From the NCBI GenBank assembly GCA_030432695.1, contig JAUILN010000010.1, positions 114,910 through 178,909 on the forward strand: a DNA stretch of 64,000 bases. The letters are read 5' to 3'. Origin of the DNA: a bacterium. GTDB taxonomy: Bacteria > Planctomycetota > UBA1135 > UBA2386. Below are positions 1 to 62,948 of this stretch, piece after piece; positions within the stretch are counted from its first letter, which is position 1; every line of letters begins with the position of its first letter. The notes under the pieces are model-generated. The model was given only the letters and a program-made list of their open reading frames with translations. It ran no database searches and was not told the DNA's origin. The position numbers were made by a program, and so were the translations under genes.

Positions 1-242
1 ACTTCCCGAACATCAAGGCCTACTGGATCATGCTGACCGCCGAGAGCGCCCAGACCGCCCTGTCGTTCGGCGCCAACGACATCGACGGCACGGTGACCGA
101 GGAGAAGATCACCCACGACGCCGGCACCACCGCACCCGAGCGGATGAACATCGAGGACCTGCAGAACCTCATCCGCGAGGCCGGCTACACCCCCGTCCAG
201 CGCACCACCACCTACGAAGAACTCGAGGCGGTGGGGGGTTAA
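1..242 (+). CDS. 3' end of futalosine-pathway radical SAM enzyme (MqnC/MqnE family, cyclic dehypoxanthinyl futalosine or aminofutalosine synthase); partial, starts upstream of window
   Basis: Frame 3 reads ...FPNIKAYWIMLTAESAQTALSFGANDIDGTV(T)EEKITHDAGT...NLIREAGYTPVQRTTTYEE, typical C-terminus of MqnC/MqnE. High GC3. Stop TAA at 240-242. Confidence 0.65.
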   Translation, partial: FPNIKAYWIMLTAESAQTALSFGANDIDGTVTEEKITHDAGTTAPERMNIEDLQNLIREAGYTPVQRTTTYEELEAVGG

Positions 243-272
243 CAACTCGACCCGGCCGGGTTGTGAACCCCC
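233..272. repeat. REP-like imperfect palindrome (left arm of REPtron); inverted copy of 1282-1320
   Basis: GGGGGGTTAACAACTCGACCCGGCCGGGTTGTGAACCCCC contains the central perfect palindrome CCCGGCCGGG and is ~93% identical to the reverse complement of 1282-1320. Its GTTAAC core supplies stop codons for both convergent genes. Confidence 0.6.
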
Positions 273-1240
273 TCTGCCTCGTCGACGAGAACCCGCTCCG
301 CGAACGCGGCGCACCAGGCCGAGTAGGCGGCGTCCACCTCGATGCGGACGCAGTGGCGCTTCCAGAGCGCATGGGCTCGCTCGGCCGAGATTCCCAGGCA
401 GAGGCCCACGCCGCGAAACGTCTGACCCGTGAGCGAGCGGAGCATTCCGACTAGCACGCAGCGGGACACGACCTCGTCCACATGGACGGCCAGTGGAAGC
501 GCCGCCTCATCCACCTCTCGCCACGCCTCCAGCAATAGCTCCGGCGGGATGAGTCGAGATCCCCGCGTGGCGTCACCGTCCGCCAACCTCGCACGGCGAC
601 GTAACCACCGTTCCGCGCCATCCGCAACGATGGCCCTGGCCCGGACTCCTGCCGCGATCGGCGTCCGATCCCAGAGGCTGTACTCGATGGAGTCGGACTG
701 GCGACCGGTCGGCCTGAAGAGCCGCGAGTATGGCCCCTCGTCGAGATCGCCATCCGGCAGCAGGCTGCGGATCCAATCCGAGCTGAGCCACTTCGGCGGC
801 CCGGCGACGAACCGCCGGGCGCTCCCATGTGGATACTGCACCGGACGATCACAGAGCCTTGCCTGCACCGGATTCCAATCGATGTAGCCGACGAGAACCC
901 GCCGATAGACCCGATCCCCGACGGAGTTCGAGAAGAACCCGTTCCGCACCAGCGGACCGTCCCGATCGTGAAGCTGGTTGAACGCCTGCACGTAGCGCGA
1001 CTGGATCCAGGCAAGCGAGTCGCTGATCCCGCGGGCTCGGGTTCTCACCAGCAGATGGAAGTGCGTGCGGAGGATCGCGAAGGCGTGAACCTCGAGCCAT
1101 CCGCGCCTGACGGCTCGCGCGACCAAGGAGAGGAACATGCGGATCTCGTGATCCGACTCGAAGAAGGGGCGGCGGCCCACCGCGCGATTCATCACGTGGT
1201 GCCAGGCCCCGGGATGGTCCCGACGATCGATCTTGGGCAT
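239..1240 (-). mobile_element. REP-associated tyrosine transposase (RayT / TnpA_REP, IS200-like HUH Y1 family) with ~190-aa C-terminal extension
   Basis: HUH motif THFHLLV and catalytic Tyr context GYIDWNPVQARL (compare RayT YIYINPVKHG). The N-terminal ~140 aa match the Y1 transposase fold. Flanked by inverted REP-like hairpins. Confidence 0.7.
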
Positions 1241-1281
1241 GCGGTCCGGTGCCCCGGCGCAGCCGCTCGGTCACGGTGCAT

Positions 1282-5049: not shown

Positions 5050-5142
5050 ATCGCTATCCTGGAGCCTTCTCGTCGCGGAAGACCCGGCTGTCCTGCCCTT
5101 CCCACCCTTCCGCTCATCCTCCCCTCCGCAACCTCTCTGTCG

Positions 5143-6879
5143 ATGACCCGATCCCTCAGCGCATTGTGCGCCGTCCTTCTCGCCGCGTCCGTCGCCTCCC
5201 AGGGCATGCCCGGCCCCTGCTGGGAACCGAACCTCGGCACCGGCCTCGCGCTCGGTGACGACGCAGTCTCCCCGGCCCTCCAGCTCGGCTTCCCGTTCCA
5301 GCTGCCGGGCGGCGGCACCACGAACGACATCGAGGTGTCGTCGAACGGATTCATCTACCTGGTGACCGGCTCGAACGGCGGCAACGGCTGCTGTAGCGGC
5401 AACATCGCCACCTTTCTGTCGGGTGTGCCGCGCATCGCCGCAAGCTGGCAGGACCTGAACCCGAACGCCGGTGGTGGTGTCTACTTCAACGCGCTGCCCG
5501 GTAAGGCGGTCATCACCTGGGACCAGGTCCCCGAGTACTCCAGTCAGGGCCAGAACTCCGTCCAGGTGCAGATGTACGCCGACGGCTCGTTCAGCATCGC
5601 GATCCGCGAGTGGACCATGCCCGGCACCCACGACATCCTGGTCGGCGTGACTCCCGGCGGCGGCGTCGCCGACCCGGGCGAGGTCGACTTCACCGGCCCG
5701 AGCCCGGTGCTGAGCCTCAACGACCCGACCGTCTACGAGTTCTACGACAACCCGAACGACTCGCGCGACGTCGCCGGTCGCACCCTCTACTTCCTGCCCT
5801 CGGGCTCGAACGGCTGGGTGGTCTTCGACCAGCCGCAGTGCAGTGCCGCCGGGTTCTCGACCTACGGCACCGGCTGTCCGTTGCGTGGCCCCGTCGCCTA
5901 CGAGTGGTTCGACGTCAACGGCTCGAGCGACTTCCCCGACCTCGCCGCCAACACCGGCGTCGTGTTCACGCGCAACGCCGACGGCACCTACACCACCGGC
6001 CTGTGCCGGAGCAACTGCTTCGAGTCCAACTACCAGGGCCAGTCACTGCCGCTGACCGACGACTCGGTGTCGGCCCCGCTGCCGCTCGGCTTCACGCAGG
6101 ACTTCGCCGGGATACCGAGCGTCTCGCAGATCGTGGTCGCGTCCAACGGCTGGATCCACCTCGACACCACCGCCACGAACAGCCGCTGCTGCAACGGCAA
6201 CGTTCAACAGCTGCTCGACGAGGATCCGGGTCTCGCGCCCTACTGGACCGACCTCAATCCCGCCAGCGGCGGCACCGTGTGGTTCAACGCCCTGCCCGGC
6301 AAGGCGGTCATCACCTGGGATCAGGTTCCCGAGTACGGCGGCGGCAGCCCGCAGACCTTCCAGGCGCAGCTGTTCGCCAACGGCGACATCGTCTACGCCT
6401 ACCAGAGCATCAGCATCGCCACCCACGACGTGCTCGTCGGCCTGTCGGTCGGTGGCGGTGCCGATGATCCGGGCGAGATCGACTTCTCGGTCGGCCAGCC
6501 GTTCACCACCGGCACCTCGGGCACTCCGACCACCCTCGACGTGGTCCCGGGCGCGCTCCCGCAGATCGGTAGCACGCTGCAGGTCGAAGTCGGCTCGATC
6601 CCCAGCACGACCCTGCAGGGCATCCTGTCGTTCGGATTCACCAACCCGAACATCGACCTGACCCTGGCCGGAGCCCCGGGCTGCTGGCTCTACACCTCGA
6701 CCCTGGCGACGCTGCCGTTCAACGCGAACATGCCGACCGCCCAGGTCTCGCTGCCGATCCCGAACAACCCGATGTTCGTCGGCATCGACCTGTTCCTGCA
6801 GGGCGTCATGCTGGTGCCGAGCATCAACAGCCTCAACATCGCGTCGACCAACGGCGGTAACGCGCGCATCGGAACCTGA
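5143..6879 (+). CDS. Secreted protein with an internally duplicated Cys-containing domain plus the shared C-terminal domain
   Basis: Signal peptide. Two paralogous repeats (NGFIYL..GNGCCSGN..NALPGKAVITWDQVPEY and NGWIHLD..SRCCNGN..NALPGKAVITWDQVPEYGG). C-terminus ...GAPGCWLY...LPIPNNPMFVGIDLFLQGV...ARIGT matches the shared domain. Confidence 0.85.
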   Translation: MTRSLSALCAVLLAASVASQGMPGPCWEPNLGTGLALGDDAVSPALQLGFPFQLPGGGTTNDIEVSSNGFIYLVTGSNGGNGCCSGNIATFLSGVPRIAASWQDLNPNAGGGVYFNALPGKAVITWDQVPEYSSQGQNSVQVQMYADGSFSIAIREWTMPGTHDILVGVTPGGGVADPGEVDFTGPSPVLSLNDPTVYEFYDNPNDSRDVAGRTLYFLPSGSNGWVVFDQPQCSAAGFSTYGTGCPLRGPVAYEWFDVNGSSDFPDLAANTGVVFTRNADGTYTTGLCRSNCFESNYQGQSLPLTDDSVSAPLPLGFTQDFAGIPSVSQIVVASNGWIHLDTTATNSRCCNGNVQQLLDEDPGLAPYWTDLNPASGGTVWFNALPGKAVITWDQVPEYGGGSPQTFQAQLFANGDIVYAYQSISIATHDVLVGLSVGGGADDPGEIDFSVGQPFTTGTSGTPTTLDVVPGALPQIGSTLQVEVGSIPSTTLQGILSFGFTNPNIDLTLAGAPGCWLYTSTLATLPFNANMPTAQVSLPIPNNPMFVGIDLFLQGVMLVPSINSLNIASTNGGNARIGT

Positions 6880-15443: not shown

Positions 15444-16109
15444 ATGACCGCTCCCTCCTCCGAACCCTCGGCGTCCTCCGCGCACCGGCTGGTGGCCTTG
15501 GGAGCGAGCAACCTCACCCGGCTCCTGCCCGCACTGACCCGCGCCGGCGGCTTCACCGAAGTGCGCGCCGCCTGCGGCTACGGCCGCTCCTACGGAGCAC
15601 CGAGCTGGTTCCTGCTGCGGCGGCGCGGCGGCATCGACACCTGCGGCCTGTGGAACGACCTGACGGCAGGCCCCGGTCGCGGCGGGCTCGGCCTCGTCAC
15701 CGATGTCGGCAACGACATCCTGTACGGCTTCGACGTGCCCTGGATCTTGGCGCGGGTCCGGAGCTGCGCGGAGCGGCTCCGCGCGCACTGCGACGAGCTG
15801 GTGGTGACCGGCCTGCCGCTCGACTCGATCGCCAAGGTCGGCCGGCTGCGCTGGCTGTTGCTCCGCACCGTCCTCGTCCCCGGCTGCCGCATCGGGCTCG
15901 CGGAGGCGAAACGTCGGGCACGGCAACTCGACGAGGAGTTGCGGGCGATGGCCGATGGGCTCGGCGCGCGCTTCGTCGAGCTGCCCGGGACGTGGTACGG
16001 AGTCGACCCGATCCACGTGGTCCGCCGCCGCTTCCCCGAGTACTGCACAGCGGTGCTCGGTGGCAGGTCCGCACCGGCCGGCCCGGCGCCGGTCCCGCGC
16101 CAGTTCTGA
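15444..16109 (+). CDS. SGNH/GDSL-like hydrolase family protein
   Basis: Block I GASN, block III VGNDILYG, block V DPIH. Confidence 0.65.
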   Translation: MTAPSSEPSASSAHRLVALGASNLTRLLPALTRAGGFTEVRAACGYGRSYGAPSWFLLRRRGGIDTCGLWNDLTAGPGRGGLGLVTDVGNDILYGFDVPWILARVRSCAERLRAHCDELVVTGLPLDSIAKVGRLRWLLLRTVLVPGCRIGLAEAKRRARQLDEELRAMADGLGARFVELPGTWYGVDPIHVVRRRFPEYCTAVLGGRSAPAGPAPVPRQF

Positions 16110-16129
16110 CCGGACCGCGCCGGCATGCG

Positions 16130-17227
16130 TCAGACGTTGAACAGGAAGTGCACGATGTCGCCGTCGCGCATCACGTACTCCTTGCCCTCCGAACGCATCT
16201 TGCCCGCCGCCTTGATCGCCGCCTCGGTCTTGTGCTGACGCAGGTCGTCGATGCCGTAGACGTTGGCCCGGATGAAGCCGCGCTCGAAGTCGGTGTGGAT
16301 CACGCCGGCAGCCTGCGGTGCGGTCGCTCCCGCCGGAATGGTCCAGGCGCGGATCTCCTTCTCGCCCGCGGTGAAGTAGCTCTGCAGGCCGAGCAACTGA
16401 TAGCAGCCACGGATCAGCTTGTTGAGCGCCGGCTCTTCGAGGCCGTAGGCGCCGAGCATCTCCTTCAGGTCGTCGCCTTCGAGACCGACCAGCTCCTCCT
16501 CGATCTTGGCGCAGACCACCACGCACTCGGCGCCGCGCTCCTTGGCATACTCCGCGACGCGCGCTGCCATCTCGTTGCCGTCCGGCAGCCCGGCCTCGTC
16601 GACGTTGCAGCAGTAGAGCACCGGCTTGGCGGTGAGCAGGCAGAGCTCGCGGAGGATGGCCCGCTGGCCGTCGTTCTTCGCCTCGACGGTGCGCGCCGGG
16701 TGACCGTCGCCCAGCACTGCGCTCAGCTTCTCGACGAACTCCAGCTCGGCCTTCGCCTCCGGCTTGCCGGTGCGGGCATTCTTGCGCGCCCGATCGACCC
16801 GCTTCTCGACCGTCTCCAGGTCGGCGTAGATCAGCTCGAGTTCGATGACCTCGACGTCGCGGAGCGGATCGACCGTGCCGTCGACGTGGATCACGTCGTC
16901 GTCCTCGAAGCAGCGGACCATCATCAGCACGGCATCGGTCTCGCGGATGTTGGCCAGGAACTTGTTCCCGAGGCCCTCTCCCTTCGACGCACCCTTCACC
17001 AGACCGGCGATGTCGACCAGGTCGACCGCGGCCGGGATCACCGCCCGGGTCTTGATGAAGCTCTGGATCTCCGCCAGCCGGCCATCGGGCACCGGCACCA
17101 CGCCGACGTTCGGGTCGATCGTGCAGAAGGGATAGTTGGCGCTCTCGGCGCCTGCCTTGGTGAGGGCATTGAAGAGCGTCGACTTGCCGACGTTCGGCAG
17201 GCCGACGATGCCGACGCTGAGACCCAT
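16130..17227 (-). CDS. ychF: Ribosome-binding ATPase YchF
   Basis: [23 protein letters not shown] (G1), [14 protein letters not shown]-terminal domain. Near full-length match to the YchF/OLA1 family. Confidence 0.95.
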
Positions 17228-17377
17228 GAAGTGCTGCTCCGCTGGAGATTTCGGGGCAAGGGAGATACCGGATCGGCGCGGGACCGGCAAGACCGCTCCG
17301 GGCCCGCGCGATTGCGGCCGGGGAGGCGCGCGGCGAAGATCCCGTCCCCGGGGCTCCTACCCCGCCAAGGTTCCGCC

Positions 17378-17836
17378 ATGTTCCACCACCTCTTCCGCGT
17401 CGTCGCCGCAGCGACGCTCCTCGCCCTCGCCGCCCCCGCCCAGGTCGCCCCGGTCAACAACACCGGCTGCCCGAACTATGCGCCGCCGCAGTGGAACGGC
17501 GCTCCGCGGCTCGGCACGACCCTGACGTTCACGTACCAGCGCCGGCCCACGCCGGGTGGCCTGGCGTTCCTGGCGCTCGGCTACTCCTCGGGTGGCGGCA
17601 TCGACTTCAACCAGCCCGACACCTGCGTGCCGGGTCCCTGCCGCCTCTACGTCGCCCCGCTGGCCGCCGGCTACCTCACGGTCACGGACACCTTCCAGGC
17701 CAACATGCCGATCCCGATTCCCAACGACCGCGCGCTGCTGTTCTCGACCTTCGCGGTCCAGGGCGGCACCTACGACACGCTGGGCGGCGCGTGCTTCACG
17801 CTCAGCCAGGCCGTGAGCTTCGCGATCCAGCCATGA
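17378..17836 (+). CDS. Small secreted protein consisting only of a signal peptide plus the shared C-terminal domain
   Basis: MFHHLFRVVAAATLLALAAPAQV signal. The rest (NTGCP...GPCRLYVAP...MPIPIPNDRALLFSTFAVQGG...FAIQP) aligns with the C-termini of eight other secreted proteins. Stop overlaps the next start (ATGA). Confidence 0.8.
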   Translation: MFHHLFRVVAAATLLALAAPAQVAPVNNTGCPNYAPPQWNGAPRLGTTLTFTYQRRPTPGGLAFLALGYSSGGGIDFNQPDTCVPGPCRLYVAPLAAGYLTVTDTFQANMPIPIPNDRALLFSTFAVQGGTYDTLGGACFTLSQAVSFAIQP

Positions 17837-18585
17837 TCGACCGCTCGTCTCGCCTCGTTCCGCTCCTGCTGCTCGGCAGCCTCGCACTGCTGGCAGCCGG
17901 CTGCGGCACCGGCCCCGCTCCGGCCGACGAGCACGCCGACCTGGTGTTCACGTTCATCCGGACCGGCCCGACGCCTCCTGCCGACCTCGGCGCCGAACGC
18001 ACCTCCGAGCTGTTCGCGGGTCACTTCGCCAACATGACCACGATGGCCGAAGCCGGACAGCTGTTGCTGGCCGGTCCCTTCGGCAGGCCGCCGGTCACCC
18101 CGGACCTCCGCGGCATCTTCGTGTTCGACACCGCCGACCTCGACCAGGGCCATCGCTGGGCCGAGACCGACCCGCCGTCGCAGGCCGGCCTGTTCCGCCT
18201 GGAGAGCTACCATTGGCACGCCGATGCCGACGTCCGCGAGGTGCCGGCGCGCGACCAGGCGATGCTCGCGGCACTCACCGAGGACGAGCGCGAGAACCCC
18301 GGCGCCACCGCCCGCTCCTACGTGCTCTGCATCGGAGCCGACGCGGCGGCGCTCGAGCCGCGCCTCGCGCCCTTCCGCGATGCCGGCGAACTCGGCCTGT
18401 TCGGCGTGCTCGGTGAAGGCACCGAGGGCGCACCCGACCGGACCGGCCAGGCTTTGTTCATCCTGGTGGCGGACACACCCGACGCGGCGCGGGCTCGCGC
18501 CGAGCAACTCGGCGTGGACCTCGACGGCGTCGAGATCCACCCCTGGTTCGCCAGCAAGGCGGTGCAGCAGCTCGCGCGCAACTGA
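17833..18585 (+). CDS. Lipoprotein with two YciI-like (DGPF) domains
   Basis: Lipobox LLAAGC. YciI-like motifs LFAGHFANMTTMAEAGQLLLAGPFG, with a second copy in the C-terminal half. Confidence 0.7.
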   Translation: MIDRSSRLVPLLLLGSLALLAAGCGTGPAPADEHADLVFTFIRTGPTPPADLGAERTSELFAGHFANMTTMAEAGQLLLAGPFGRPPVTPDLRGIFVFDTADLDQGHRWAETDPPSQAGLFRLESYHWHADADVREVPARDQAMLAALTEDERENPGATARSYVLCIGADAAALEPRLAPFRDAGELGLFGVLGEGTEGAPDRTGQALFILVADTPDAARARAEQLGVDLDGVEIHPWFASKAVQQLARN

Positions 18586-18616: not shown

Positions 18617-19684
18617 TCACGTCCCGAAGCGGACGATCACCTGCTGCGGCGTGACCGGCACGAGCCCGGTGCTCGCCGTCACCGGCGTGCAGATCACCTG
18701 GTGCGCCGGGATCCGCGGCGACGGGCCCGGCGGCAGCTTCAGGTGGAGACCGCGGGTCAGCGTCGCCGGACCGTTGATGCGGAAGCTCACGCCCTGCACG
18801 TAGACCTCGCCGTCGGCCATCGACGGCAGCCAGGGGAAGGTCCAGGACTGGAAGAACACGCCGTTGCGATCCGGGTTGCCGAGGACCACGGTGAGACCGT
18901 CCGTGTAGAGATCGGTCACGCAGCCGGCGGTCGGCACCGGCGCGGCCGGGTTCCGCAAGCCCAGGAGCAGGCCCGCCCAGTTGTCGCCCGGCGCGACCCG
19001 CGTATCGAGGACCATGGTCATCTCGGTGCCGGTGGGCAGGGTGGCGATCGGCGCGCTGATCCCGATCTCCCCCGCGGCGCAGGCCGGGCCGAAGCTGTAG
19101 CTCTGGGCCTGGTTGGGCACCGTGTAGCCCGTCGACTGCACCGCGTAGTCGCTGCCGAAGAAGCCGCCGAAGATCGGGCCGCCGGTGCGCGCGAAGGCCC
19201 GCGACTCCCACACCAGGTCGTGGCTGCCGCTGTGCGCGTACGGCGCATCGAGCGGGATCGTGATGTCCCAGGGCTCCACGAAGGGCTGCGAGATGCCGCC
19301 GCGCGCCGGCAGACTGACGATACGTCGCGCGACCACCGTGCTCGGGGAACCGAGGTAGTTCGCCGCGACGTCGTTGCCGGCGGTGGCGCGATCGCCATCG
19401 CCCATCCACAGCTCGAAGTCGACCGTCCCTGCCGGCACCGCCACCGCATCCTCGTGCGGCCGGAACGACAGGCTGCGGATCGTCATGGGTACGCCACGCA
19501 GGTCGTCGTGGATCTGCTGGTAGCGGATCGTCCCGGGCCAGTTGAACCCGCCACCGAAGGGCAGATCGTTGGCGGCATTGCCGCGGAAGTCGCGGTGGTA
19601 GGACGGCGAGACGAAGTCTTGGGCCGGCGTCGTCACGGCGAGCAGCGACGTGACGACTCCGGCGACGGCGGCGCGGCGGAACAT
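18617..19684 (-). CDS. Secreted hypothetical protein carrying the shared C-terminal domain
   Basis: Signal peptide. C-terminus ...PTAGCVTDLYTD...GEVYVQGVSF...VRFGT. Confidence 0.8.
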   Translation of the reverse strand: MFRRAAVAGVVTSLLAVTTPAQDFVSPSYHRDFRGNAANDLPFGGGFNWPGTIRYQQIHDDLRGVPMTIRSLSFRPHEDAVAVPAGTVDFELWMGDGDRATAGNDVAANYLGSPSTVVARRIVSLPARGGISQPFVEPWDITIPLDAPYAHSGSHDLVWESRAFARTGGPIFGGFFGSDYAVQSTGYTVPNQAQSYSFGPACAAGEIGISAPIATLPTGTEMTMVLDTRVAPGDNWAGLLLGLRNPAAPVPTAGCVTDLYTDGLTVVLGNPDRNGVFFQSWTFPWLPSMADGEVYVQGVSFRINGPATLTRGLHLKLPPGPSPRIPAHQVICTPVTASTGLVPVTPQQVIVRFGT

Positions 19685-20763: not shown

Positions 20764-22146
20764 TCACCGGATTCCGATCACTGCGGTCCCGCCGTCCGAA
20801 GTCGTCGCGTTGCCGGGATTGGCACCCGGATCGAGTGCGAGAGCTTGCGTGTAGAAGCCGAGCCCCAGTGCCGCCGGATCGGTGGGCATCGTCAACGTGA
20901 ATGCTGCACGGCCATTGTTGCTGGGGATGCCTTGGTTCACGAACGGCTCGACCCGCAGCGAGCAACCGGTCAGGCCGAAGGCATCGAGAGCGAACGGCAG
21001 CTGAAAGCCACCCCAGTTGGTGTTCGAGAAGCCGATGAACGCCACCGTGGTCGTCGCCGGGATCCGCAGGTTGGTGAACGCGACCTCGAACGGCTCGCCG
21101 GCCCACGGCAGACCACCGACGTCGTGCAGTGGCGCCCGCCCATTCGAACCGACGCAACCGCCCCCGAAGGCTGCCCAACGAGCCGGGTGATCGGTCGAGA
21201 ACTCCCACAGGTCCGGGTTGCCGGTGAGGCCACCGAACATCACCACGCGCTCGCGCAGCGAGTCCCACACCATGTAGTCGTCGTAGCGGGCCGGCGGCAG
21301 GCTGACCGGCATCCGCTGCACCCAGTCGGCACCATCCCACTCCCAGGTGTCGGCGGTGCCGGTGCCGCCGAACATCACGATTCGTCGGCGCAGCAGGTCG
21401 GTGGCCATCGTGTGGTCGTAGCGCTGCGGCGGCGTGGTCACGGGCTGCAGCTGACGCCAGTCGACGCCGTCGAAGTACCAGGTGTCGGGGCCCTGCTGGT
21501 AACCGCTGAACAGCAGCACGCCGCCCCCCACCGGGTCCCACGCCATGTCGCTGGCGCGCCGGGCTGGCGGTGCGTTCTGGGTGTTGATCTGCCGCCAGTT
21601 CACGCCATCCCACTCCCAGGTGTCGTTCACGTCGGCGTTCGCGTCGATACCACCCCACATCACGGTGGTACCGCGGATCGGATGGAACACCATGCAGTGC
21701 GAGCGGCGCGCCGGCGGCGAGATGGCGGGAGACATCAACGACCAGTCCTGACCATCCCACTCCCAGGTATCGCTGGTGACCCCACTGGCGTCGAGCCCAC
21801 CGAACAGGACGACCCGGTTGCGGATCGAGTCGTAGACCATCGGGTGCGCGACCCGGATGCCCGGCGAGTTCAGCGGCTGGACCTGGGTCCAGTCGTTGCC
21901 GTCGTAGACCCAGGTATCCGCCAGCCGCTGTGTGCCGTCGTATCCACCGTGCAAGACGATGCGGTCATTGACGGTGTCGTAGGCCATTCCATGGCCGGCG
22001 CGACCGGTCGGAGTATTGGCCGGCGTCAGCGGCCGCCAGTCGACCTGCCCGGCGAGAGGGAGCGCCACGCCGGCGAAGACGCAGAACGTCGTGAGGCCGA
22101 GACGGAACGAAACGGACGAAGAGATCGAAGAGCGTGTCTGGGGCAT
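20764..22146 (-). CDS. Secreted Kelch-repeat beta-propeller protein with the shared C-terminal domain
   Basis: Signal peptide. Six or more Kelch-like blades (DTWVYDGNDW, DTWEWDGQDW, DTWEWDGVNW, DTWYFDGVDW, DTWEWDGADW, DLWEF). C-terminus FGGGCVG...LTGCSLRVEP...LGFYTQALALD...VIGIR. Confidence 0.85.
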   Translation of the reverse strand: MPQTRSSISSSVSFRLGLTTFCVFAGVALPLAGQVDWRPLTPANTPTGRAGHGMAYDTVNDRIVLHGGYDGTQRLADTWVYDGNDWTQVQPLNSPGIRVAHPMVYDSIRNRVVLFGGLDASGVTSDTWEWDGQDWSLMSPAISPPARRSHCMVFHPIRGTTVMWGGIDANADVNDTWEWDGVNWRQINTQNAPPARRASDMAWDPVGGGVLLFSGYQQGPDTWYFDGVDWRQLQPVTTPPQRYDHTMATDLLRRRIVMFGGTGTADTWEWDGADWVQRMPVSLPPARYDDYMVWDSLRERVVMFGGLTGNPDLWEFSTDHPARWAAFGGGCVGSNGRAPLHDVGGLPWAGEPFEVAFTNLRIPATTTVAFIGFSNTNWGGFQLPFALDAFGLTGCSLRVEPFVNQGIPSNNGRAAFTLTMPTDPAALGLGFYTQALALDPGANPGNATTSDGGTAVIGIR

Positions 22147-24468: not shown

Positions 24469-24999
24469 TCACTTGTCCTGCGACGGGAAGCGGCCGGTGA
24501 TCCGACCCTCGGTGTCGTAGAACGTGAGCCGGCCCTCGTCCTTCCAGTACAGTACCGCGGCACCCTTGGACTCCCGGCCGTGCAGCGCGAAGCCCGCGCC
24601 GCCGTGCTCGAAGAGAGCGGCCCCGAGTCGCGTGACGCCCTCGGGGTCTTCCAGGTAGAGGCCTCCACCGTCGTCGGTCCAGAACAACCGTACGCGGCCG
24701 CGCTGCTGGTCGTCGAGGAGGCGCAGGACCGGGTCACCGTCCTCGAAACCGAGTCTCGCGCGGACCGAGCCTCCTCCGTCGACGAGTTCGAAGGCCGAGG
24801 CCCGCAAGACCTGCTGCGGTTCTCGCTGCGGGTCCACCGCAGCGGCCGCGGGATCCGGACTCGGGTCCTGCCGCCAGCCAGCCGCGGCGAGCAGCCCCAC
24901 GCTCAGGGTGACGATCCACAACGCGAGCGAACCACGCGCCAGCGTCTCGAGGCGACGCAGGCGACGGTCATCGATTGCCACGGTGTCGGAAGTGTCCAT
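24469..24999 (-). CDS. Hypothetical single-pass membrane protein
   Basis: TM helix LALWIVTLSVGLLAAAGW. Strong GC3. Contiguous with the PfpI gene, so probably co-transcribed. Confidence 0.6.
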   Translation of the reverse strand: MDTSDTVAIDDRRLRRLETLARGSLALWIVTLSVGLLAAAGWRQDPSPDPAAAAVDPQREPQQVLRASAFELVDGGGSVRARLGFEDGDPVLRLLDDQQRGRVRLFWTDDGGGLYLEDPEGVTRLGAALFEHGGAGFALHGRESKGAAVLYWKDEGRLTFYDTEGRITGRFPSQDK

Positions 25000-25142
25000 C
25001 CGGGAATCGGAAGGTCACGCACTCCGGCTGGCAATGTCCGTCCCCTCGATTCGCGGCGCCGGAACCGAGCCCTGGGATCGAAGGAGAGACCTGCGGAAAA
25101 GTCCGGCGAGCGTCGCGCCCCCTGGCGCATGACCACATTGCC

Positions 25143-26087
25143 ATGCTCAACACGAAGAAGTGGACCCTCCTCGCGGCCTCGACCGCATTCCTCGCCGTCA
25201 GCTCGACCGTGGGGGCGCAGGGGACGCCCGCGCGGTTCAACACCAACATCTGGTATCGCCTCCAGACCCAGTTCCAGGGACCCGGCAAGGCGCTCGACGT
25301 GATCAACGACGGCGTCAACAACGACCGTCTGCACATGGTCGATGTCGGCCCTTACAGCGGCCAGTACTGGCGGTTGACGCCGGTTCAGGGCTTCCCCGGT
25401 GCCTACCGGATCTCCTCGCTCTGGCAAGGCGAGAACCTGCCGATCGACATCATCAACGGCGGCCCGAACGACAACGAGCCCATCCTGGCTCCGTTCGGCT
25501 CCACCAACGGGCAGTTCTGGTGGATGTACGAGATCCTGCCTCAGGCGCCGGGCCATTACTGGATGACCACGGGCTTCCGCGGACCGAACATGGCACTGGA
25601 AGGTGCGGCCATCAACGGCAACCAACCGCGGCTCGACCCGCGCGGGTTGTTCTCCGGTCAGGCGTGGCGCTTCGTGCCGATCATCTCGATCGACCCGGCC
25701 AGGACCACGCCATTCGGCACCGGCTGCAATGCCGGCAGCGGCAATCTGACCCTGACCACGAACGACCCATGGGTCGGGGAACGCCTGACCGGCGCGGTGC
25801 GCAACCTGCCCGCCGATGCCCCGGCCTGCGAGCTGTTCTTCGGACTGCGCCTGAGCGCGCCGTTGCCGATCTACCAGTCCCCTGGATGCAGCCTGCTCGT
25901 CGATCCGGCCGTCCAGGTGACCCTGCCAGCCGTGAACGGCACCTGCACGATCGACCTGCCGATCCCAGGTGACTCCAACCTGGTCGGCGGAGTGCTGCCG
26001 ATCCAGGCCCTGGCGATCCGACCGCGCGGCGCCGCACCACGGATCCCGGCGACCAACGGCGTCGAGCTGAAGTTCGGGCTCCGCTGA
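25143..26087 (+). CDS. Secreted ricin-B-like (beta-trefoil) lectin with the shared C-terminal domain
   Basis: Signal peptide. Three QxW repeats (GQYWRL, GQFWWM, GQAWRF). C-terminus FGTGCNAG...SPGCSLLVDP...LPIPGDSNLVGGVLPIQALAIRP...KFGLR. Confidence 0.85.
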   Translation: MLNTKKWTLLAASTAFLAVSSTVGAQGTPARFNTNIWYRLQTQFQGPGKALDVINDGVNNDRLHMVDVGPYSGQYWRLTPVQGFPGAYRISSLWQGENLPIDIINGGPNDNEPILAPFGSTNGQFWWMYEILPQAPGHYWMTTGFRGPNMALEGAAINGNQPRLDPRGLFSGQAWRFVPIISIDPARTTPFGTGCNAGSGNLTLTTNDPWVGERLTGAVRNLPADAPACELFFGLRLSAPLPIYQSPGCSLLVDPAVQVTLPAVNGTCTIDLPIPGDSNLVGGVLPIQALAIRPRGAAPRIPATNGVELKFGLR

Positions 26088-26418: not shown

Positions 26419-27204
26419 GTGACTGCACCACTCGACGACAGCCCGGTCGCTCCGGACATGGTGGAACGGCTCCGCAGCTTGGCTCCTTGGCATATGGACC
26501 TCGTGCTGCGGTGCGGCACACGGACGGTAGCCGGCAACCTGTGCAACTACGCGGAAGCCGACCACGAACACGTGATCGCGATCGACCCCGACGAGCTTCG
26601 CTCGACGCTCGAACACCTCTACCCCGAGGGCCTGGCTGGCAGGAGCTTCCTCGACGTCGGCTGCAATGCGGGCGGCTACAGCTTCCTCGCCCGGAGCCTC
26701 GGCGCGAGCCGGACCCTCGGCTTCGACGTCCGCGAGCACTGGATCAGGCAGGCCCGCTTCGTTGGCGAACACTGGGATGGTGACACCTCCAACATGCGCT
26801 TCGAGGTCGCCCACATCCATGACGTCGACCTGAGCGACGGCTTCGACCTGACGCTGTTCAAGGGCGTGTTCTACCACCTGCCGGCGCCGATCCACGCGCT
26901 GCTGCGGCTGTGCGACGCGACCCGCGACGTGATCATCGTGGACACGGCCTCACGTAGCGACATCCCCGAGAACGCGCTCGTCACCAACTTCGAGAGCCGT
27001 AGCCACGTGATGTCGGGTGTCGATGGCCTGGCGTGGATGCCCGGCGGACCTCGCGCGGTGATCGACATCCTGACCCACGCGGGTTTCCAGGACTGCCACG
27101 TCGCCTTCTGGCTGAAGGAACTGGCAATGGGTCCGCGCCCGGAGCTGGGTCGGTTCCGGGTGATCGCCGCGCGGCAACCAGGGCGTCTGGCGGCACCGAG
27201 CTGA
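26419..27204 (+). CDS. Class I SAM-dependent methyltransferase
   Basis: Motif I FLDVGCNAGGYSF. Start is GTG 26419 or ATG 26458. The region upstream in the track ORF has AT-rich third positions. Confidence 0.75.
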   Translation: MTAPLDDSPVAPDMVERLRSLAPWHMDLVLRCGTRTVAGNLCNYAEADHEHVIAIDPDELRSTLEHLYPEGLAGRSFLDVGCNAGGYSFLARSLGASRTLGFDVREHWIRQARFVGEHWDGDTSNMRFEVAHIHDVDLSDGFDLTLFKGVFYHLPAPIHALLRLCDATRDVIIVDTASRSDIPENALVTNFESRSHVMSGVDGLAWMPGGPRAVIDILTHAGFQDCHVAFWLKELAMGPRPELGRFRVIAARQPGRLAAPS

Positions 27205-27235
27205 GGATCACGGACCGCGGTGGCAGAATCCTCGC

Positions 27236-30200
27236 ATGGATTCCCGGACCGCGGCGAACCGGGCCTCGATGACCGACTCGAATCCGCTCGACAGACGCTT
27301 CGCCGCCTTCGTACGAACCGGCGATCCCGACCACCTCGCCGCGGTCTTCGACGTGGCGGCGCCGAGGCTGCTGCTGGTGGCGATGCACCTCACCCGCGAC
27401 GTCGCGGAGGCCGAGGACCTGGTGCAGACCACGTTCCTGGAGGCGATCCGCGGTGCGGACCGCTTCGAGGCAGGGCGATCGGTGCTGCCCTGGCTGGTGA
27501 CGATCCTGAGCAGGCGGGCGCAGGACGCGCGGCGACGGCGGCGCGCCGCTGGTGCGGCCGACGAACCCGCGGCCGACGCAGCGGAGCCTCTGGCCGCGCT
27601 CGCGCACGAGGAGACGCTGCGCGCCGTCTCGCAAGCCCTCGACGGACTGCCCGCCCACTACCACGAGGTCGTGAGCCTGCGCTTCGTGCACGGGCTCAAA
27701 GTGGTCGAGATCGCCCGGGCGCTGCGCCGTCCGGTGGGCACGGTGCAGGCGCAGTTGCATCGGGGGTTGGCGATGCTACGGCGAGCGCTGCCGAAGAGCG
27801 TGGCGCTGTCGATGGCGGCGCTGTTGGCGGGGACCGAGCGCGGGCTGGCAGCGGTGCGAACGGAGGTGCTGCGAGCTGCGGGCGCCGGACTGGTCGCCTC
27901 GACCGCGTTCGGCAAGCTCGTGATGTTGGGACTGCTCGTACTCGCCACTGGCGTAGGGTTGTGGTGGATGCTGCCGAGCAGCGCGGCCCCGTCGCAGCTG
28001 CAGGATCGGTCCGCAGCGGCAGGCCCGATCTTCGAAGAGTCGGATCCGCGCGAAGAGCAGCGCATCGCGGTGGCGTCTTCTGGCAGCACCGCTCCGGTGC
28101 ACGAGCGCACCGGCGATCCGGAACCCGCGGCCGACGATCCGAACGTGGTGCGCTTCTCGGGGCGCGTGGTCGCGGCGGAGTCGGGGGAGCCGCTCGAGGG
28201 GGTGGAGATGTGGTTCCGGCAGAGCTGGACCAACCAGGACTACACCTACATCTTCGGGGACGGCCGCTACTGGTTGGTCGAGGACCACTTCGTCACCGGC
28301 ACGGACGGGCGGTTCGCATTCGCCGCGCGTCTGCTCCACGAGACCGGATACCAGCTCAACATGCAGGCCGACCGGCGGATCGGCCGATCGGGGTCCATCA
28401 CGAGGCTCACCGACCCCCTCCATGCCGACTTCGGCGACGTCGCGCTCCACCGTGGCACGCGCGTCACCGGCCGCATACGGAACCGGAACGGCGAAGGGAT
28501 CGAAGCCGGCCTGCACGCCGAAGCCCCGCTCCCGGAACTCCGAGGGCTGCCCGGGCTCGACGGATTCGACCTGATCGGGATCGCGTGGTCGGACGACGAC
28601 GGCCGCATCCGCGAGGGCCACACGACCGCCGCGGGAACGTGGCGACTCCTGTCGACCAGCGGTGAGGTGCTCGAACCGCGCGAGATCGTGGTGCGCGAAG
28701 GCCAGGATCACATCGACCTGAGCGTCCGCCTCGCCACCGCCGGGCCGATCGCCGAACTCGCCGGTCGCGTGATCGATCGCGCGGGCAACCCGGTCGCGAG
28801 GCAAGCAGTGCGCGCCTGGTTCCCTGGATCCGAAGACGCCTTCGACTCCGACTCGACGGACGAGGCCGGCCGATTCGTGATCACGGCGCGGCGCGAGGAA
28901 CAGCTGCAGCCGTTCCACCTCGGGTTGGCGAAGGGCAGGATCTTCTCGCGCTTCGCGGGTGGCGCTCCGGAACGGCTGTGGAACTGGAACGGGAGCGAGC
29001 CCGTGTTGACCGCGCAGCCGGCGTCGACGACCGACCTCGTGGTCGTCGATGCAGCCGGCACACCGATCGAGTCCTTCGGCCTCTGGCTGAAGGCCTCCGA
29101 CGAGCGGCGCTCGTGCTATGCCCACTTCGGCCACCATTCCGAGGGTCGACTCTCCTTGCCTGGACTGACCGACGACGTGCTCTCGCTCACGGTGATCCCC
29201 GAGCGGCGCGACCTCCGCTTCGCCACGATCCACCCCACCGCGGAACCGCAACCGCGTGACTGCGACGTCGCTCTCGTCCGCGGATCACCGCTCGAGATCG
29301 CCCTGCGCAGTGAGAATCGTCCCGTCTCCGGCGCGGACGTGGCGATGACCAGAGTCTCCCCCGTACTTCGCTACCTGAGTGACGACTCGACGGCTCCGCT
29401 CGCGGACGCGCGCGCCTGGTTCCAGACCGGCATCGGCTCCGGAGGCCAGTTCGTCTTCGACGACCGAGCGACCAGCGACGCTTCGGGAAGGGCGACCCTG
29501 TTCGTCGACTCCCGGTGGGAGCCCGAAGAAGGCGAGTTCGCACTCGTGATCCAACACCTCACCCACGAGAGCCAGGTGGTGCCACTCAGCGCCGAGCAGA
29601 TCGTCACCGGACGCGTGGAGGTCGAACTCGTGGCCGGCGGGGCGATCCTCGGCAGGGTCGTGCAACCCGACCTCGCCGGACGCTTCGCGGATCGGGTCGG
29701 CGCCGGCCGGCAACGAGACGATGGGACCTTCAGCCGTCCAGAACACGGTGGCCCGCGGAACACGCCGGCGTGGTGGGCCGAAAGCCCGATCGCCGCAGAT
29801 GGGTCGTTCGAGTTCCGGGGACTGCCGCCGGGCCGCTGGAGGCTCTCGCTGGAGCGGCACGGCCGCAACTTCGTCCACCCGGACATGCCGATCCTCGACA
29901 TCGAAGCGGGCGACACGACGACGGCGATCCTCGATCCGACCTCCCTGGCACCCGCCACGGTGCGCCTCCACGTCACCTTGGATGGACGACCCGCTCCGGA
30001 AGGCCGCTACGCATCCCTGACCCTCCTCGAAGACCACCCCCTCCTGAACCTCACCAGCCTCGACTCCGAGAAGTTCGACCGCGACGGATCCGTGTGCTTC
30101 CTCGACGTGCCAGCCGGATCCTACGCGCTGTTCAGCGGCGGCGTCGTCAACGGCGTCAACGACCACCGCTACTCGGCAGACGTGATCGTGGTCGCGCCGG

Positions 30201-30484
30201 GTCACGATGTGGAACAGCGCGTCGACCTCCCGCGACGCCGGCTGACCCTGGACCTCCGCGCTGCCGACGGGTCACCCACCGGGCTGTGGTCCGGCGCACG
30301 CTACACGGGCGGCGCACACCCCGACATCGGCCCCGACGGCAGGACCTTCGCTCCGCTCCCCGGCTTCGACGGCGTCACCCTCCACCTCCCCCGCCCCGAC
30401 GGCGGCGCCCCCCTCGTCCTCGGCCCCTTCCGGATCCCGGACGGCCAGACCACCCACCACCAGATCGTCCAACTCCCCGACTGA
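27236..30484 (+). CDS. ECF sigma-70 factor fused to a transmembrane segment and large extracytoplasmic beta-sandwich domain (one-component transmembrane sigma factor)
   Basis: Region 2 DLVQTTFLEAIRGADRF. Region 4 HTH YHEVVSLRFVHGLKVVEIARALRRPVGTVQAQLHRGL. TM helix FGKLVMLGLLVLATGVGLWWML. About 850 aa of carboxypeptidase-regulatory-like repeats (FSGRVVAAESGEPLEGVEMW). Single uninterrupted ORF. Confidence 0.8.
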   Translation: MDSRTAANRASMTDSNPLDRRFAAFVRTGDPDHLAAVFDVAAPRLLLVAMHLTRDVAEAEDLVQTTFLEAIRGADRFEAGRSVLPWLVTILSRRAQDARRRRRAAGAADEPAADAAEPLAALAHEETLRAVSQALDGLPAHYHEVVSLRFVHGLKVVEIARALRRPVGTVQAQLHRGLAMLRRALPKSVALSMAALLAGTERGLAAVRTEVLRAAGAGLVASTAFGKLVMLGLLVLATGVGLWWMLPSSAAPSQLQDRSAAAGPIFEESDPREEQRIAVASSGSTAPVHERTGDPEPAADDPNVVRFSGRVVAAESGEPLEGVEMWFRQSWTNQDYTYIFGDGRYWLVEDHFVTGTDGRFAFAARLLHETGYQLNMQADRRIGRSGSITRLTDPLHADFGDVALHRGTRVTGRIRNRNGEGIEAGLHAEAPLPELRGLPGLDGFDLIGIAWSDDDGRIREGHTTAAGTWRLLSTSGEVLEPREIVVREGQDHIDLSVRLATAGPIAELAGRVIDRAGNPVARQAVRAWFPGSEDAFDSDSTDEAGRFVITARREEQLQPFHLGLAKGRIFSRFAGGAPERLWNWNGSEPVLTAQPASTTDLVVVDAAGTPIESFGLWLKASDERRSCYAHFGHHSEGRLSLPGLTDDVLSLTVIPERRDLRFATIHPTAEPQPRDCDVALVRGSPLEIALRSENRPVSGADVAMTRVSPVLRYLSDDSTAPLADARAWFQTGIGSGGQFVFDDRATSDASGRATLFVDSRWEPEEGEFALVIQHLTHESQVVPLSAEQIVTGRVEVELVAGGAILGRVVQPDLAGRFADRVGAGRQRDDGTFSRPEHGGPRNTPAWWAESPIAADGSFEFRGLPPGRWRLSLERHGRNFVHPDMPILDIEAGDTTTAILDPTSLAPATVRLHVTLDGRPAPEGRYASLTLLEDHPLLNLTSLDSEKFDRDGSVCFLDVPAGSYALFSGGVVNGVNDHRYSADVIVVAPGHDVEQRVDLPRRRLTLDLRAADGSPTGLWSGARYTGGAHPDIGPDGRTFAPLPGFDGVTLHLPRPDGGAPLVLGPFRIPDGQTTHHQIVQLPD

Positions 30485-41140: not shown

Positions 41141-42625
41141 ATGCGACCGATCGGAGCCCTCCTGATTTGCGGCCTGCTCGCCGTCCTGCTGCCGGCCCAG
41201 TCGTCGCGCGAGCCCTTCGAGGAATGCTCGGTCGGCGTGGCCTGTGGCCGGGCCACAGCCGACGGCCGACCGCTGCTCTGGAAGAACCGCGACGCGACGG
41301 CCCGCGACAACGTGATCCGCGCCTTCGACGACGGGAAGCACCGATACGTCGCGCTGTGCAACGCCGGCAGCACGGGCAGCAGCGTGTGGGGCGGCGCCAA
41401 CGCGGCAGGGTTCTGCATCATGAACTCGGTGTCCCGCGACCTCGCGGGTGACAACGGCGAAGGGCCGGGCAACGGACCGTTCATGAAGCTCGCGCTGCAG
41501 AGCTGTGCCAGCGTGGAAGAGTTCGAGGAGCTGCTCGAGAGCACCGCGACCAGCGGGCGACGGACCCGGGCCAACTTCGGGGTGATCGACGCTCGCGGCG
41601 CCGCGGCCGTCTTCGAGACCGGCCATGCGCACCACGTCCGCTTCGACGCCGACGATGTGGAGTCCGGCATCCTGCTGCGCACCAACTTCGCGACCACCGC
41701 CGACGGCGACCGGGGCCGCGAGCGCTTCGCCAGGGCCCACGCGATCTGTCGGTCACTGCCCGGACCCGAGGGCCTCGACCACCGCTTCCTGCTGCGCCGG
41801 TTCCAGCGCGACCTGACCCCGCCGCCGAGCGCGCTCGCGAGCCAGGATGAACGACAGGACGTACGCGAGACGATCCACCGCCAGACCACCGTCGCGTCGA
41901 TGGTCTTCCACGGGGTCCGCGCCGACGAAGCGCCTGAGGTGACGACGATGTGGGCCGTCCTCGGTCAGCCGCTGTTCTCGATCGCGGTGCCCTGCTGGCC
42001 GGGCGAGGTCGGTGTCTCCCCGCTCCTCTCCGGAACCCGGAAGCAGCCGCGCAGCCCGCTCTGCGACGCGGCGATCGGCCTGCAGACGGGCTTCTACGAG
42101 GAGCCGCGCGATGCCCTTGCCGAGGCGAACCGCGACGACGAGGTGGCCGGCGCGGTGCGTTGGCTGCACGTCGGCGACGAACTGGCGGCACTCGGCAGGG
42201 AGCGGGACGCGGTCGAGGACGAGATCCTCTCGATGGTCGAGACCCGACGCACGACCGACGTCGAGCGCCTTCGTGCAATGCACGACCACGCGGCCCGGCG
42301 CGCGCTCGATGCGCTCCGCGCGTTCGACAGCCGCTTCGACCCCCTCGACGTGGTGCGGGTCCACGGCCGCATCGCGGTCGGCGGCGAGATCGAGGAGCCG
42401 TGGATCCTCGAGATCAACCACGCGCGGTTCCGGATCGCGGCGGAGAGCTTCGACGTCACCGTGCCGACGGCACCGGAGTACCGCCTCCGCGTGGAGCTGC
42501 CCGGGCATGCGCCGCTGACCAAATCCCTGCCGGCCCAGGACGTCGTGGACGACGCGCTGCAGGTTCCGACGTTGCGCCCGCGGGCGCTGCCGGAGCCCGC
42601 GCTCGGCACAGGTGGCAGGCGTTAG
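41141..42625 (+). CDS. Secreted Ntn-hydrolase family protein (choloylglycine hydrolase / peptidase C45 / NAAA-like)
   Basis: Signal peptide followed by CSVGVACGRATADGRPLLWKNRD, the Ntn nucleophile-Cys pattern C-[ST]-x...DG...G-[KR]-N-x-D. Confidence 0.65.
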   Translation: MRPIGALLICGLLAVLLPAQSSREPFEECSVGVACGRATADGRPLLWKNRDATARDNVIRAFDDGKHRYVALCNAGSTGSSVWGGANAAGFCIMNSVSRDLAGDNGEGPGNGPFMKLALQSCASVEEFEELLESTATSGRRTRANFGVIDARGAAAVFETGHAHHVRFDADDVESGILLRTNFATTADGDRGRERFARAHAICRSLPGPEGLDHRFLLRRFQRDLTPPPSALASQDERQDVRETIHRQTTVASMVFHGVRADEAPEVTTMWAVLGQPLFSIAVPCWPGEVGVSPLLSGTRKQPRSPLCDAAIGLQTGFYEEPRDALAEANRDDEVAGAVRWLHVGDELAALGRERDAVEDEILSMVETRRTTDVERLRAMHDHAARRALDALRAFDSRFDPLDVVRVHGRIAVGGEIEEPWILEINHARFRIAAESFDVTVPTAPEYRLRVELPGHAPLTKSLPAQDVVDDALQVPTLRPRALPEPALGTGGRR

Positions 42626-42807
42626 CGCACGCAGCCTACCGTCTCCTCTGCGCCCCTGCGGGAATCCGGGCCCGCTGTCACCGCCACGAACCCGTCGGTC
42701 GCGACGACTACGTACCGCGGAACCCGCGGAATTGTCGAACCGCGCAGGCGAGGCTGGACCCTCTCCCCATCAGCACTCGGACTCCATCCGGCCCCGTCCT
42801 TCCAGCG

Positions 42808-44352
42808 ATGACCCTCCCCCACACTCCGCGCGCCACATGGCGGATCTCCGCGGCGGTAGCGACAGCGCTCGCCGCTCCGTTCGCAGCGGGCCAAGCTCCG
42901 GAACTATTCCGGGTCTACCCGACGCGCACGCAACCCCTGACCGGCACTCCCTTCGCCGTGGTCGCTGCCGACTTCGACGGCGACGGTGACCGGGACGTCG
43001 CGGCGTCGAGCGACAGCGCCGGCCTCCGGCTGTTCCGCAATGACGGCCTCGGCAACCTGCCGATCGATCTGCTCGCCACGGTCCTGACCGGCCGGATGCT
43101 CGATCTGCACGCCGTGGATGTGGATGGCGACGGCGACCTCGACATCGTCGGTGCAGAGGCTTCGATCGTGCTCCGCAACGACGGACGGGGTCGGTTCACG
43201 AACGACACCGCGGCGATCCCCTCGGGGGCACTCGCGCGGACCACCGAACTGGCGGTCGTCGACCTCGACGGCGACGGCGATCTCGATCTGGTCCACACCG
43301 GACAGGACGCGCCCAAGGGCGCGCTGTTCAACGACGGCGCCGGGCGGTTCCTCGATCTGGGACCCAGGTTCGCGGCCGACCCGTTCGTCTCCCGTACCGT
43401 CGCAGTGGGCGACGTCGATGGGGACGGCGACGTCGACGTGGTGTTCGCCGGCTACCGGCCGACGCCCCCCTACACAGAGTCGTCGTCGTTGCACCTGAAC
43501 GACGGCACCGGCCACTTCACGATGGCCAACGGCCACGGCCTGCGGACGTTCGAGGTCGGTGCCTCCAGCTCCGCGTTGACCGACGTCGATGGCGACGGCG
43601 ACCTCGACTACCTGATCGCGCAGTGGTCGGGATTCGGCACCTCCCAACCGGGAGTGCGCATGCTGCTGAACGACGGTTCCGGTCACTACACCGAAGCGCC
43701 GGCGGGCATGCTTCCGGCCGATCAACCGAGCTTCGCAGGCGAGCTCCGCGCAGCCGACGCGGATCGGGACGGCGACATCGACCTGCTGGTGTTCTTCAAC
43801 CGCGACCCGGCCCTTTGGCTGAACGACGGACGGGGTGCCTACACGATCGCCAGCAACGGTGTGGTCCCAGCGATGCCCGATCCCGACGCCGTGCTCTACG
43901 ACGCGGTCTGGGGCGATCTCGACGACGACGGCGACCACGACCTCGTGTTCACGACCAGCACCAACGGCAGCGGGATCGTGCCCTGGTTCAACCAGTCCGT
44001 GCAGATCGACGCCACGACCGAGCCGCGACTCGGACAGTCCTTCGGCATGCAGATCTCGCGGCGCCCCCTGGGCAGCGCCAACCTTGCGGTCGCCGTGCCG
44101 CTGGTTGCCGACACCCGGACCCGCATCGAGCTGCCCTCGCTCGGCGTGCTCGGTCTGATGCCCGGCCGGGCCCTGGCGCTTCCTCCGGTGCTGCTGGCCC
44201 CGAACGGTGGCGCGACCGGCTTCTCGATCGCGGTACCCGACGATCCCGACCTCGAGGGTGTCGAGATGTTCTGGCAGGCCGCCATCCTCGAGAGCGGGCC
44301 CGGCGCCGCCGACCGGCTCACCAACGTCTGGCCGAGCCGCATCCTCCGCTGA
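42808..44352 (+). CDS. Secreted FG-GAP/VCBS-repeat protein with the shared C-terminal domain
   Basis: Signal peptide. Seven DxDGDGDxD repeats. C-terminus LGVLGLMPGRALALPPVLLAPNGGATGFSIAVPDDPDLEGVEMFWQAAILE...SRILR. Confidence 0.85.
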   Translation: MTLPHTPRATWRISAAVATALAAPFAAGQAPELFRVYPTRTQPLTGTPFAVVAADFDGDGDRDVAASSDSAGLRLFRNDGLGNLPIDLLATVLTGRMLDLHAVDVDGDGDLDIVGAEASIVLRNDGRGRFTNDTAAIPSGALARTTELAVVDLDGDGDLDLVHTGQDAPKGALFNDGAGRFLDLGPRFAADPFVSRTVAVGDVDGDGDVDVVFAGYRPTPPYTESSSLHLNDGTGHFTMANGHGLRTFEVGASSSALTDVDGDGDLDYLIAQWSGFGTSQPGVRMLLNDGSGHYTEAPAGMLPADQPSFAGELRAADADRDGDIDLLVFFNRDPALWLNDGRGAYTIASNGVVPAMPDPDAVLYDAVWGDLDDDGDHDLVFTTSTNGSGIVPWFNQSVQIDATTEPRLGQSFGMQISRRPLGSANLAVAVPLVADTRTRIELPSLGVLGLMPGRALALPPVLLAPNGGATGFSIAVPDDPDLEGVEMFWQAAILESGPGAADRLTNVWPSRILR

Positions 44353-44382
44353 CCTCCCGCCGCATCCAGGAGTCTCGATCCC

Positions 44383-47592: not shown

Positions 47593-47595
47593 GGC

Positions 47596-50019: not shown

Positions 50020-50068
50020 GCTCCGGAGTGTACGGGGCTGGGTCGGTCGCGGTCGAGGTGCCTTCGGA

Positions 50069-62750: not shown

Positions 62751-62948
62751 TGAGCAGGGCGTGCGGACCGGGGCTGCGGACGCACGAGGAACGAGCAGGC
62801 GCAGGGTAGGCCCGGGCAGAATAGGGCACGCGTCCGGAACATGGAACGCCCCGATCACTGAGGCTCCCAGGGCTGACCGAGGATGCGATCCGCGCCGGGG
62901 GCACACCCCCGCCCCATCACACCTCCGACCCGCCGAACTCCCGACCGG

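Follow-up and report, generated by a model that had tools for sequence, protein, structure and literature searches.

The locus analysed here lies in a 64-kb window, by which we mean the whole stretch of DNA under analysis, with a GC content of 70%. The gene at 17378-17836 encodes a small exported protein related to a domain of about 130 aa (the C-terminal domain, CTD) that is shared by larger secreted proteins of the same window, and it overlaps a downstream gene for a lipoprotein. The features of the locus are as follows.

16130-17290, minus strand: ychF (YchF-GTPase_C and MMR_HSR1 by Pfam), upstream of and divergent from the small gene
17291-17377, no strand: intergenic region of 87 nt between the divergent ychF and small gene, from the gene layout
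17378-17836, plus strand: small CTD-only gene of 152 codons (ATG at 17378, TGA at 17834-17836)
17378-17440, plus strand: Sec-type signal peptide spanning aa 1-21 (MFHHLFRVVAAATLLALAAPA), read from the sequence; cleavage is predicted before Gln22
17441-17836, plus strand: mature 131-aa single-domain protein (a divergent, complete CTD copy) and the stop codon
17833-17836, plus strand: ATGA, the 4 nt shared by the end of the small gene and the beginning of the lipoprotein gene, in which stop and start codon overlap
17833-18585, plus strand: lipoprotein gene with a 250-aa product (ATG at 17833-17835, stop codon at 18583-18585)
17833-17904, plus strand: lipoprotein signal peptide with a lipobox (MIDRSSRLVPLLLLGSLALLAAG followed by C), read from the sequence
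17905-18585, plus strand: mature YciI-like protein, with Pfam YCII at aa 49-122 (17977-18198)
18617-19684, minus strand: convergent gene for a 355-aa secreted protein, the right boundary of the two-gene unit

Because ychF diverges upstream and the gene at 18617-19684 converges downstream, the small gene and the lipoprotein gene constitute an isolated two-gene unit. Divergent promoters for ychF and the small gene are presumed to lie within 17291-17377. Scans for sigma-70 promoters and intrinsic terminators gave no site, and a consensus scan of this kind says little for Planctomycetota. A 728-aa ORF at 15650-17836 was rejected as a high-GC artefact antisense to ychF. The homologues of the small protein all start at the equivalent Met.

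Eight CTD copies are present in the 64 kb. Besides the stand-alone copy at 17378-17836, seven are parts of larger secreted proteins.

5050-6879, plus strand: CTD protein with a NIDO-like N-terminal part
20764-22146, minus strand: CTD protein with a Kelch N-terminal part
22368 to about 23850, minus strand: CTD protein whose N-terminal part has no Pfam match
24912-26087, plus strand: CTD protein whose N-terminal part has no Pfam match
41938-44349, plus strand: CTD protein with an FG-GAP N-terminal part
44353-46041, plus strand: CTD protein with an N-terminal repeat of unknown type and no Pfam match
61290-62948, minus strand: CTD protein with an LVIVD N-terminal part

The relationship of the 152-aa protein to these CTDs was evident from profile comparisons. 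An HMM built from the five best other CTDs of the window, with the query excluded, matched the 152-aa ORF at 21.9 bits (E = 3e-6 among 407 window ORFs), and an HMM from 149 database CTDs matched it at 28.6 bits (E = 1.4e-8). When the family of small proteins was compared with the 149 database CTDs by hhalign, 120 columns covering residues 28-149 were aligned with 95.2% probability and E = 2.7e-8. The CTD alignment extends to residue 149-152 of 152, that is, to the C-terminus of the protein, and the N-terminus is taken up by the signal peptide, which ends in LAAPA before QV. Although identity to the window paralogues is 16-26%, C31 and C88 correspond to the two Cys that are nearly invariant in the CTD (GxGC near the start and PGC in mid-domain), the IPNDxxL...Q motif is present, and P115 and Q128 fall in invariant CTD columns. 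Three elements that are nearly invariant in ordinary CTDs, namely LPxxL, the Gly following IPNDxxL and the C-terminal SNxGxxxIG, are absent from the small family, which has FNQPxTC, LLFxTF and LSQAxSFAIQP at those positions. Because these elements are replaced, the small family constitutes a divergent CTD subfamily, and with the three motifs lost it may no longer bind what ordinary CTDs bind.

We also noticed by eye that residues 195-305 or so of the 355-aa product of 18617-19684 (minus strand) resemble the CTD (GPAC..., ...AGC..LY..., ...VYVQG). The similarity is not significant (E of about 0.8-1.3), the stretch is not C-terminal, and a Pfam search of this product gave no match; the stretch could be a CTD copy that has diverged very far or degenerated.

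A search of 5.8 billion proteins yielded 12 homologues of the small protein, 146-155 aa in length and 54-97% identical to it. Further members were P0013 and three loci in Planctomycetota MAGs of GTDB, which brings the small family to about 15 orthologues of 146-155 aa, from Planctomycetota MAGs and metagenomes. A scan of JGI metagenomes with the small family found nothing, and a profile search of a word-indexed database with A2 recovered mainly the small family again. Of the columns in the 13-sequence alignment 51 are invariant, four Cys and the mature N-terminus QVxPVNNTGCP among them. The boundary between A21 and Q22 is invariant in all 13 homologues, while the h-region is variable. In the 131-aa mature domain the invariant cysteines are C31, C83, C88 and C139, and the motifs IPNDxxL and VQGG are found. 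The family thus has an invariant N-terminus of its own and an extra cysteine pair. Mean column identity in the small family is 76%, as against identities of 18-33% among the CTDs of the window. This much stronger conservation, together with the family's own invariant motifs, argues against a degenerate or fast-evolving decoy, and favours neither of the two other readings in the original prediction, an adaptor or an ancestral form of the module, over the other. The conservation pattern instead points to a specific role kept by the stand-alone family, and makes a decoy or a remnant less likely.

We next modelled the structure of the small protein. With the 13-sequence alignment of the small family alone, AF2 gave a pLDDT of 54. 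With 34 ordinary CTDs added (alignment A4) it gave a pLDDT of 87.6 and a pTM of 0.81, with ten strands and no helices, and the confident model depends on this mixing of the small family with ordinary CTDs. On the strength of the latter model, the mature domain of the 152-aa protein can be assigned with confidence as a predicted all-beta fold of the beta-sandwich type. A sequence search of the PDB gave a best E value of 0.076, and no specific fold match was found for the CTD model. Cleavage of the signal peptide and formation of disulfides in the 152-aa protein, for which the expected pairs are C31-C88 and C83-C139, are predictions.

We then looked at the CTD family at large, a family found in secreted proteins of Planctomycetota. 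Using a profile made from the eight copies of the window (A3), we searched 1.84 billion representatives of clusters formed at 50% identity, of which at least 12,845 matched at E ≤ 1e-3 and 2,493 at E ≤ 1e-10. Among the best 149 of the 12,845 representatives, the CTD ended within two residues of the C-terminus in 146. Pfam analysis of 115 representatives identified Kelch propellers as the partner of the CTD in 60; the other partners included C-type lectin (Lectin_C), FG-GAP, LamG, GSDH, sulfatase, beta-lactamase, subtilase (S8), reprolysin, PKD and fn3 domains. No Pfam family covered the CTD itself in these 115 representatives, NCBIfam also has no model for it, and a literature search found no description of it. 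Short matches to the CTD were mostly truncated Kelch proteins. A few, namely P0096, P0114, P0142 and P0146, were true proteins of a signal peptide plus a CTD with the ordinary CTD motifs; they look unrelated to the small family and would be separate stand-alone forms. The original prediction had described the 152-aa protein as a signal peptide and the shared CTD with nothing else, which the HMM and hhalign matches bore out. Its view of the CTD as an autonomous fold and not a low-complexity tail also held, in light of the confident all-beta model, the orthologues of the same length and the other stand-alone forms.

From these results, we consider it likely that the product of 17378-17836 is a Sec-exported single beta-sandwich of about 131 aa, probably disulfide-bonded, which belongs to a conserved stand-alone branch of the CTD family and is encoded in an operon particular to this lineage. 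The CTD looks as a sorting or anchoring tag would: it is strictly C-terminal, follows very diverse passenger domains and has many paralogues, eight of them within 64 kb. The CTD would then bind a common partner in the envelope or at the surface, for anchoring or sorting, a step that we propose with low certainty. The stand-alone protein would use the same CTD surface without a cargo, as a dedicated and conserved envelope component and not as a decayed copy. What points to anchoring or sorting, tentatively, is the position of the domain and the architecture of the proteins that carry it, and a carbohydrate-binding or oligomerisation module would fit these equally well.

A serious rival to the sorting or anchoring tag is a ligand-binding module, that is, a CTD that binds glycans or polymers in the manner of a CBM or of an Ig-like adhesion domain, with the 152-aa protein as a small secreted or periplasmic binding protein and no sorting involved. 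The beta-sandwich model agrees with such a module, as do the partner domains, which are largely related to binding or carbohydrates (Kelch, C-type lectin, LamG, FG-GAP, sulfatase and GSDH), and the window abounds in genes for glycan processing, such as those for fucosidase, 3-keto-disaccharide hydrolase and aldose epimerase. However, CBMs are not restricted to the extreme end of a protein, whereas no more than two residues follow the CTD in 146 of 149 cases, and neither a CBM or lectin family matching the CTD by sequence nor a specific fold match was found. On balance we regard this explanation as unlikely, though it deserves to be taken seriously.

Returning to the sorting or anchoring tag, its most far-reaching form is that the CTD might be the recognition or attachment signal of an undescribed sorting or anchoring pathway of Planctomycetota, and the stand-alone orthologue a cargo-less core component, such as a structural subunit, an adaptor or a regulator sitting on the same receptor. 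This is an analogy with known systems, and in so specific a form we hold it to be rather improbable. The nearest analogue is the C-terminal sorting domain of the T9SS of Bacteroidota (Por_Secre_tail, PF18962 / TIGR04183), which, like the CTD, is a strictly C-terminal beta-sandwich (Ig-like) on many unrelated Sec-exported cargoes, with many paralogues per genome. PF18962, TIGR04183 and TIGR04131 gave no match at E ≤ 0.1 with the 152-aa protein or the Kelch and CTD protein. No T9SS machinery genes (porK/L/M/N, sov, porU/V) were seen within the 64 kb of genome, nor was any candidate sorting machinery seen in the same 64-kb window.

Two other C-terminal beta-sandwich domains resemble the CTD. The galactose-oxidase-type C-terminal E-set (DUF1929, PF09118) is also a secreted beta-sandwich placed directly after a Kelch propeller, and about half of the CTD representatives have Kelch. 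However, PF09118 is neither among the 7 Pfam families that match the Kelch and CTD protein of the window at E ≤ 0.1 nor among the 25 families found for the 115 representatives, and, unlike DUF1929, the CTD can also stand alone or come after many domains other than Kelch. PPC (PF04151) and similar domains are, like the CTD, C-terminal beta-sandwiches on secreted hydrolases, but the CTD has no profile match to them, a different and much wider range of partners, and conserved stand-alone orthologues. Identification of the CTD as the T9SS domain, PPC or DUF1929 was thus rejected for lack of a Pfam or NCBIfam match.

Little is understood of how Planctomycetota direct proteins to the outer membrane, the cell surface or the medium. 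With at least 12,845 clusters, a strictly C-terminal placement, very diverse exported partners and no curated model, the CTD could plausibly serve as a tag for sorting or anchoring. The stand-alone 131-aa version would be the simplest reagent for testing this idea; its expression, structure determination and localisation, and its use as bait, should pose little difficulty. The stand-alone copy is of value chiefly because it opens a large uncharacterised family of C-terminal domains to experiment.

We also characterised the overlapping gene at 17833-18585. Its product matches PF03795 (YCII) at 30.6 bits, above the gathering score of 24 (E = 4.8e-7), while NCBIfam YciI matches are weak and all equivalog scores are far under their cut-offs. 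The lipobox LLAAG followed by C at aa 19-24 (Cys24) fits [LVI][ASTVI][GAS]C after an N-terminal signal peptide. No Pfam family was recognised in the C-terminal half. Comparison of the N-half with the C-half by hhalign gave 84% probability and E = 7e-6 over 49 columns, a moderate support for internal duplication, so that the C-half is probably a second, degenerate YciI-like repeat and the product a probable tandem YciI-like lipoprotein. Classical YciI proteins are cytoplasmic and about 100 aa long. In contrast, the lipoprotein, although its domain lies above the Pfam gathering score for the YciI family, appears to be exported and lipid-anchored, given the predicted lipobox, and is doubled in length by the degenerate second repeat. 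Its family comprises 54 homologues, 30 of which are at least 220 aa long (226-277 aa); 23 of these 30 have a lipobox-like motif, and PF03795 is found in almost all of the approximately 30 homologues of 226-277 aa. A scan of JGI metagenomes with the lipoprotein found nothing.

The ATGA overlap implies that the small gene and the lipoprotein gene are co-transcribed, possibly with coupled translation; by itself it is no sign of a shared function. We therefore asked how far the pair is conserved. An identical contig containing the pair was found in Logan (ERR3428543). In L022 (ENA ERZ28668870) both genes occur, joined by the same ATGA, and their products are identical to those of the window at 103 of 115 positions for the small protein (90%) and 211 of 250 for the lipoprotein (84%). 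Between the window and L022, dN/dS is 0.21 for the small gene and 0.25 for the lipoprotein gene, so that both are under purifying selection. A third locus, L015, belongs to the closest relative; it is 93% identical in nucleotide sequence and keeps the ATGA junction and the first 20 or so lipoprotein codons. Its synteny with the window stops at about position 827 (about 17892 of the window), 60 nt into the lipoprotein gene. What L015 has at this place is a 76-aa ORF whose signal peptide begins in the same way but which lacks a lipobox. Because GC stays at about 0.66-0.70, the breakpoint may reflect either a real rearrangement or a chimeric assembly.

Outside these close relatives the two genes were found apart. 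The lipoprotein gene is absent beside the small-protein homologues of 68% identity or less (P0003, P0005, P0006, P0007, P0009, P0012, L016 and L018), and the small gene is absent beside the lipoprotein orthologues P0017 and P0019 (47-48% identity), where the upstream genes are unrelated and divergent. The neighbours of the distant small-protein homologues include LexA, a Ser/Thr kinase and a GFO_IDH_MocA oxidoreductase upstream and a convergent HAD or PKD gene downstream; other distant homologues lie between LOG and YndJ/DUF1990 or beside large unrelated proteins. A block of LexA, a Ser/Thr kinase of about 1000 aa, the GFO_IDH_MocA oxidoreductase and the small protein is kept in L002, L004-L010, L017 and L018, and may reflect synteny by descent among related genomes, not necessarily a functional link.

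The original prediction was thus right in its observations of a stand-alone CTD and of an ATGA overlap with a YciI-like lipoprotein gene, whose coordinates were exact and whose junction is the same in L015 and L022. As a conserved unit, however, the pair was not borne out: it recurs in L022, at about 85-90% identity, and is missing from all the more distant contexts examined, whichever gene was followed. A pair found only in close relatives indicates a recent, lineage-specific operon. We suppose that, in this lineage only, the small gene became the first cistron of a two-gene operon whose second cistron encodes the probable tandem YciI-like lipoprotein. One might also see in the two products a functional pair, in which, to give an example, the CTD-only protein is tethered, modified or chaperoned at the membrane by its lipoprotein partner and the overlapping codons keep their amounts matched. 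The retention of the overlap in L015 and L022, the export of both products to the same compartment and the purifying selection on both genes between the window and L022 speak for such a pair. Yet the small-protein homologues of 68% identity or less have other neighbours, the lipoprotein orthologues of 47-48% identity have unrelated divergent genes upstream, and the lipoprotein family, with its 54 matches, is far more widely spread than the pairing. Moreover, the four-base overlap is the commonest gene junction in bacteria. We accordingly think a functional pair improbable, and the coupling to YciI, restricted as it is to a single narrow lineage, is of minor importance.

That 17378-17836 is the decaying 3' end of a once longer CTD-bearing gene or a spurious high-GC ORF, as the abundance of long spurious ORFs in high-GC DNA and the usual place of the CTD at the ends of larger proteins might lead one to suspect, is scarcely credible and was dropped in view of orthologues that match it in length and each carry a signal peptide, found in 15 or more independent assemblies, their conservation, a GC3 of 0.95 over the 152 codons and a dN/dS of 0.09 against L015 and 0.21 against L022, which support a coding gene under purifying selection, and its annotation by gene callers in public assemblies; the pseudogene remnant that the original prediction had allowed for is thereby ruled out.

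Several further features of the window were recorded. At 27164-30484 (plus strand) lies a stop-to-stop ORF of 1106 aa with ECF sigma-factor regions 2 and 4 in its N-terminal part and CarboxypepD_reg-like beta-sandwich matches near residue 880; the ORF boundaries used may have fused two neighbouring genes here, one for a sigma factor and one for an anti-sigma factor or a large exported protein. The product of 239-1270 (minus strand) has a weak match to an IS200-like transposase (Y1_Tnp), at 22.9 bits against a gathering score of 23. At 46147-50184 (minus strand), a DUF1501 gene adjoins a PSCyt1/PSCyt2/PSD1 gene, a pairing typical of Planctomycetota; together with the homologues from MAGs labelled Planctomycetota, it supports placing the window in this phylum. 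Finally, inspection by eye revealed Gln at position +1 after eight of eight predicted signal peptides (AQ, SQ or GQ, with cleavage before Gln), in the genes starting at 1391, 5050, 17378, 18617, 20764, 24912, 44353 and 61290. This pattern resembles the 'Q-rule' (N-terminal pyroglutamate) of signal peptidase I substrates in Bacteroidetes.
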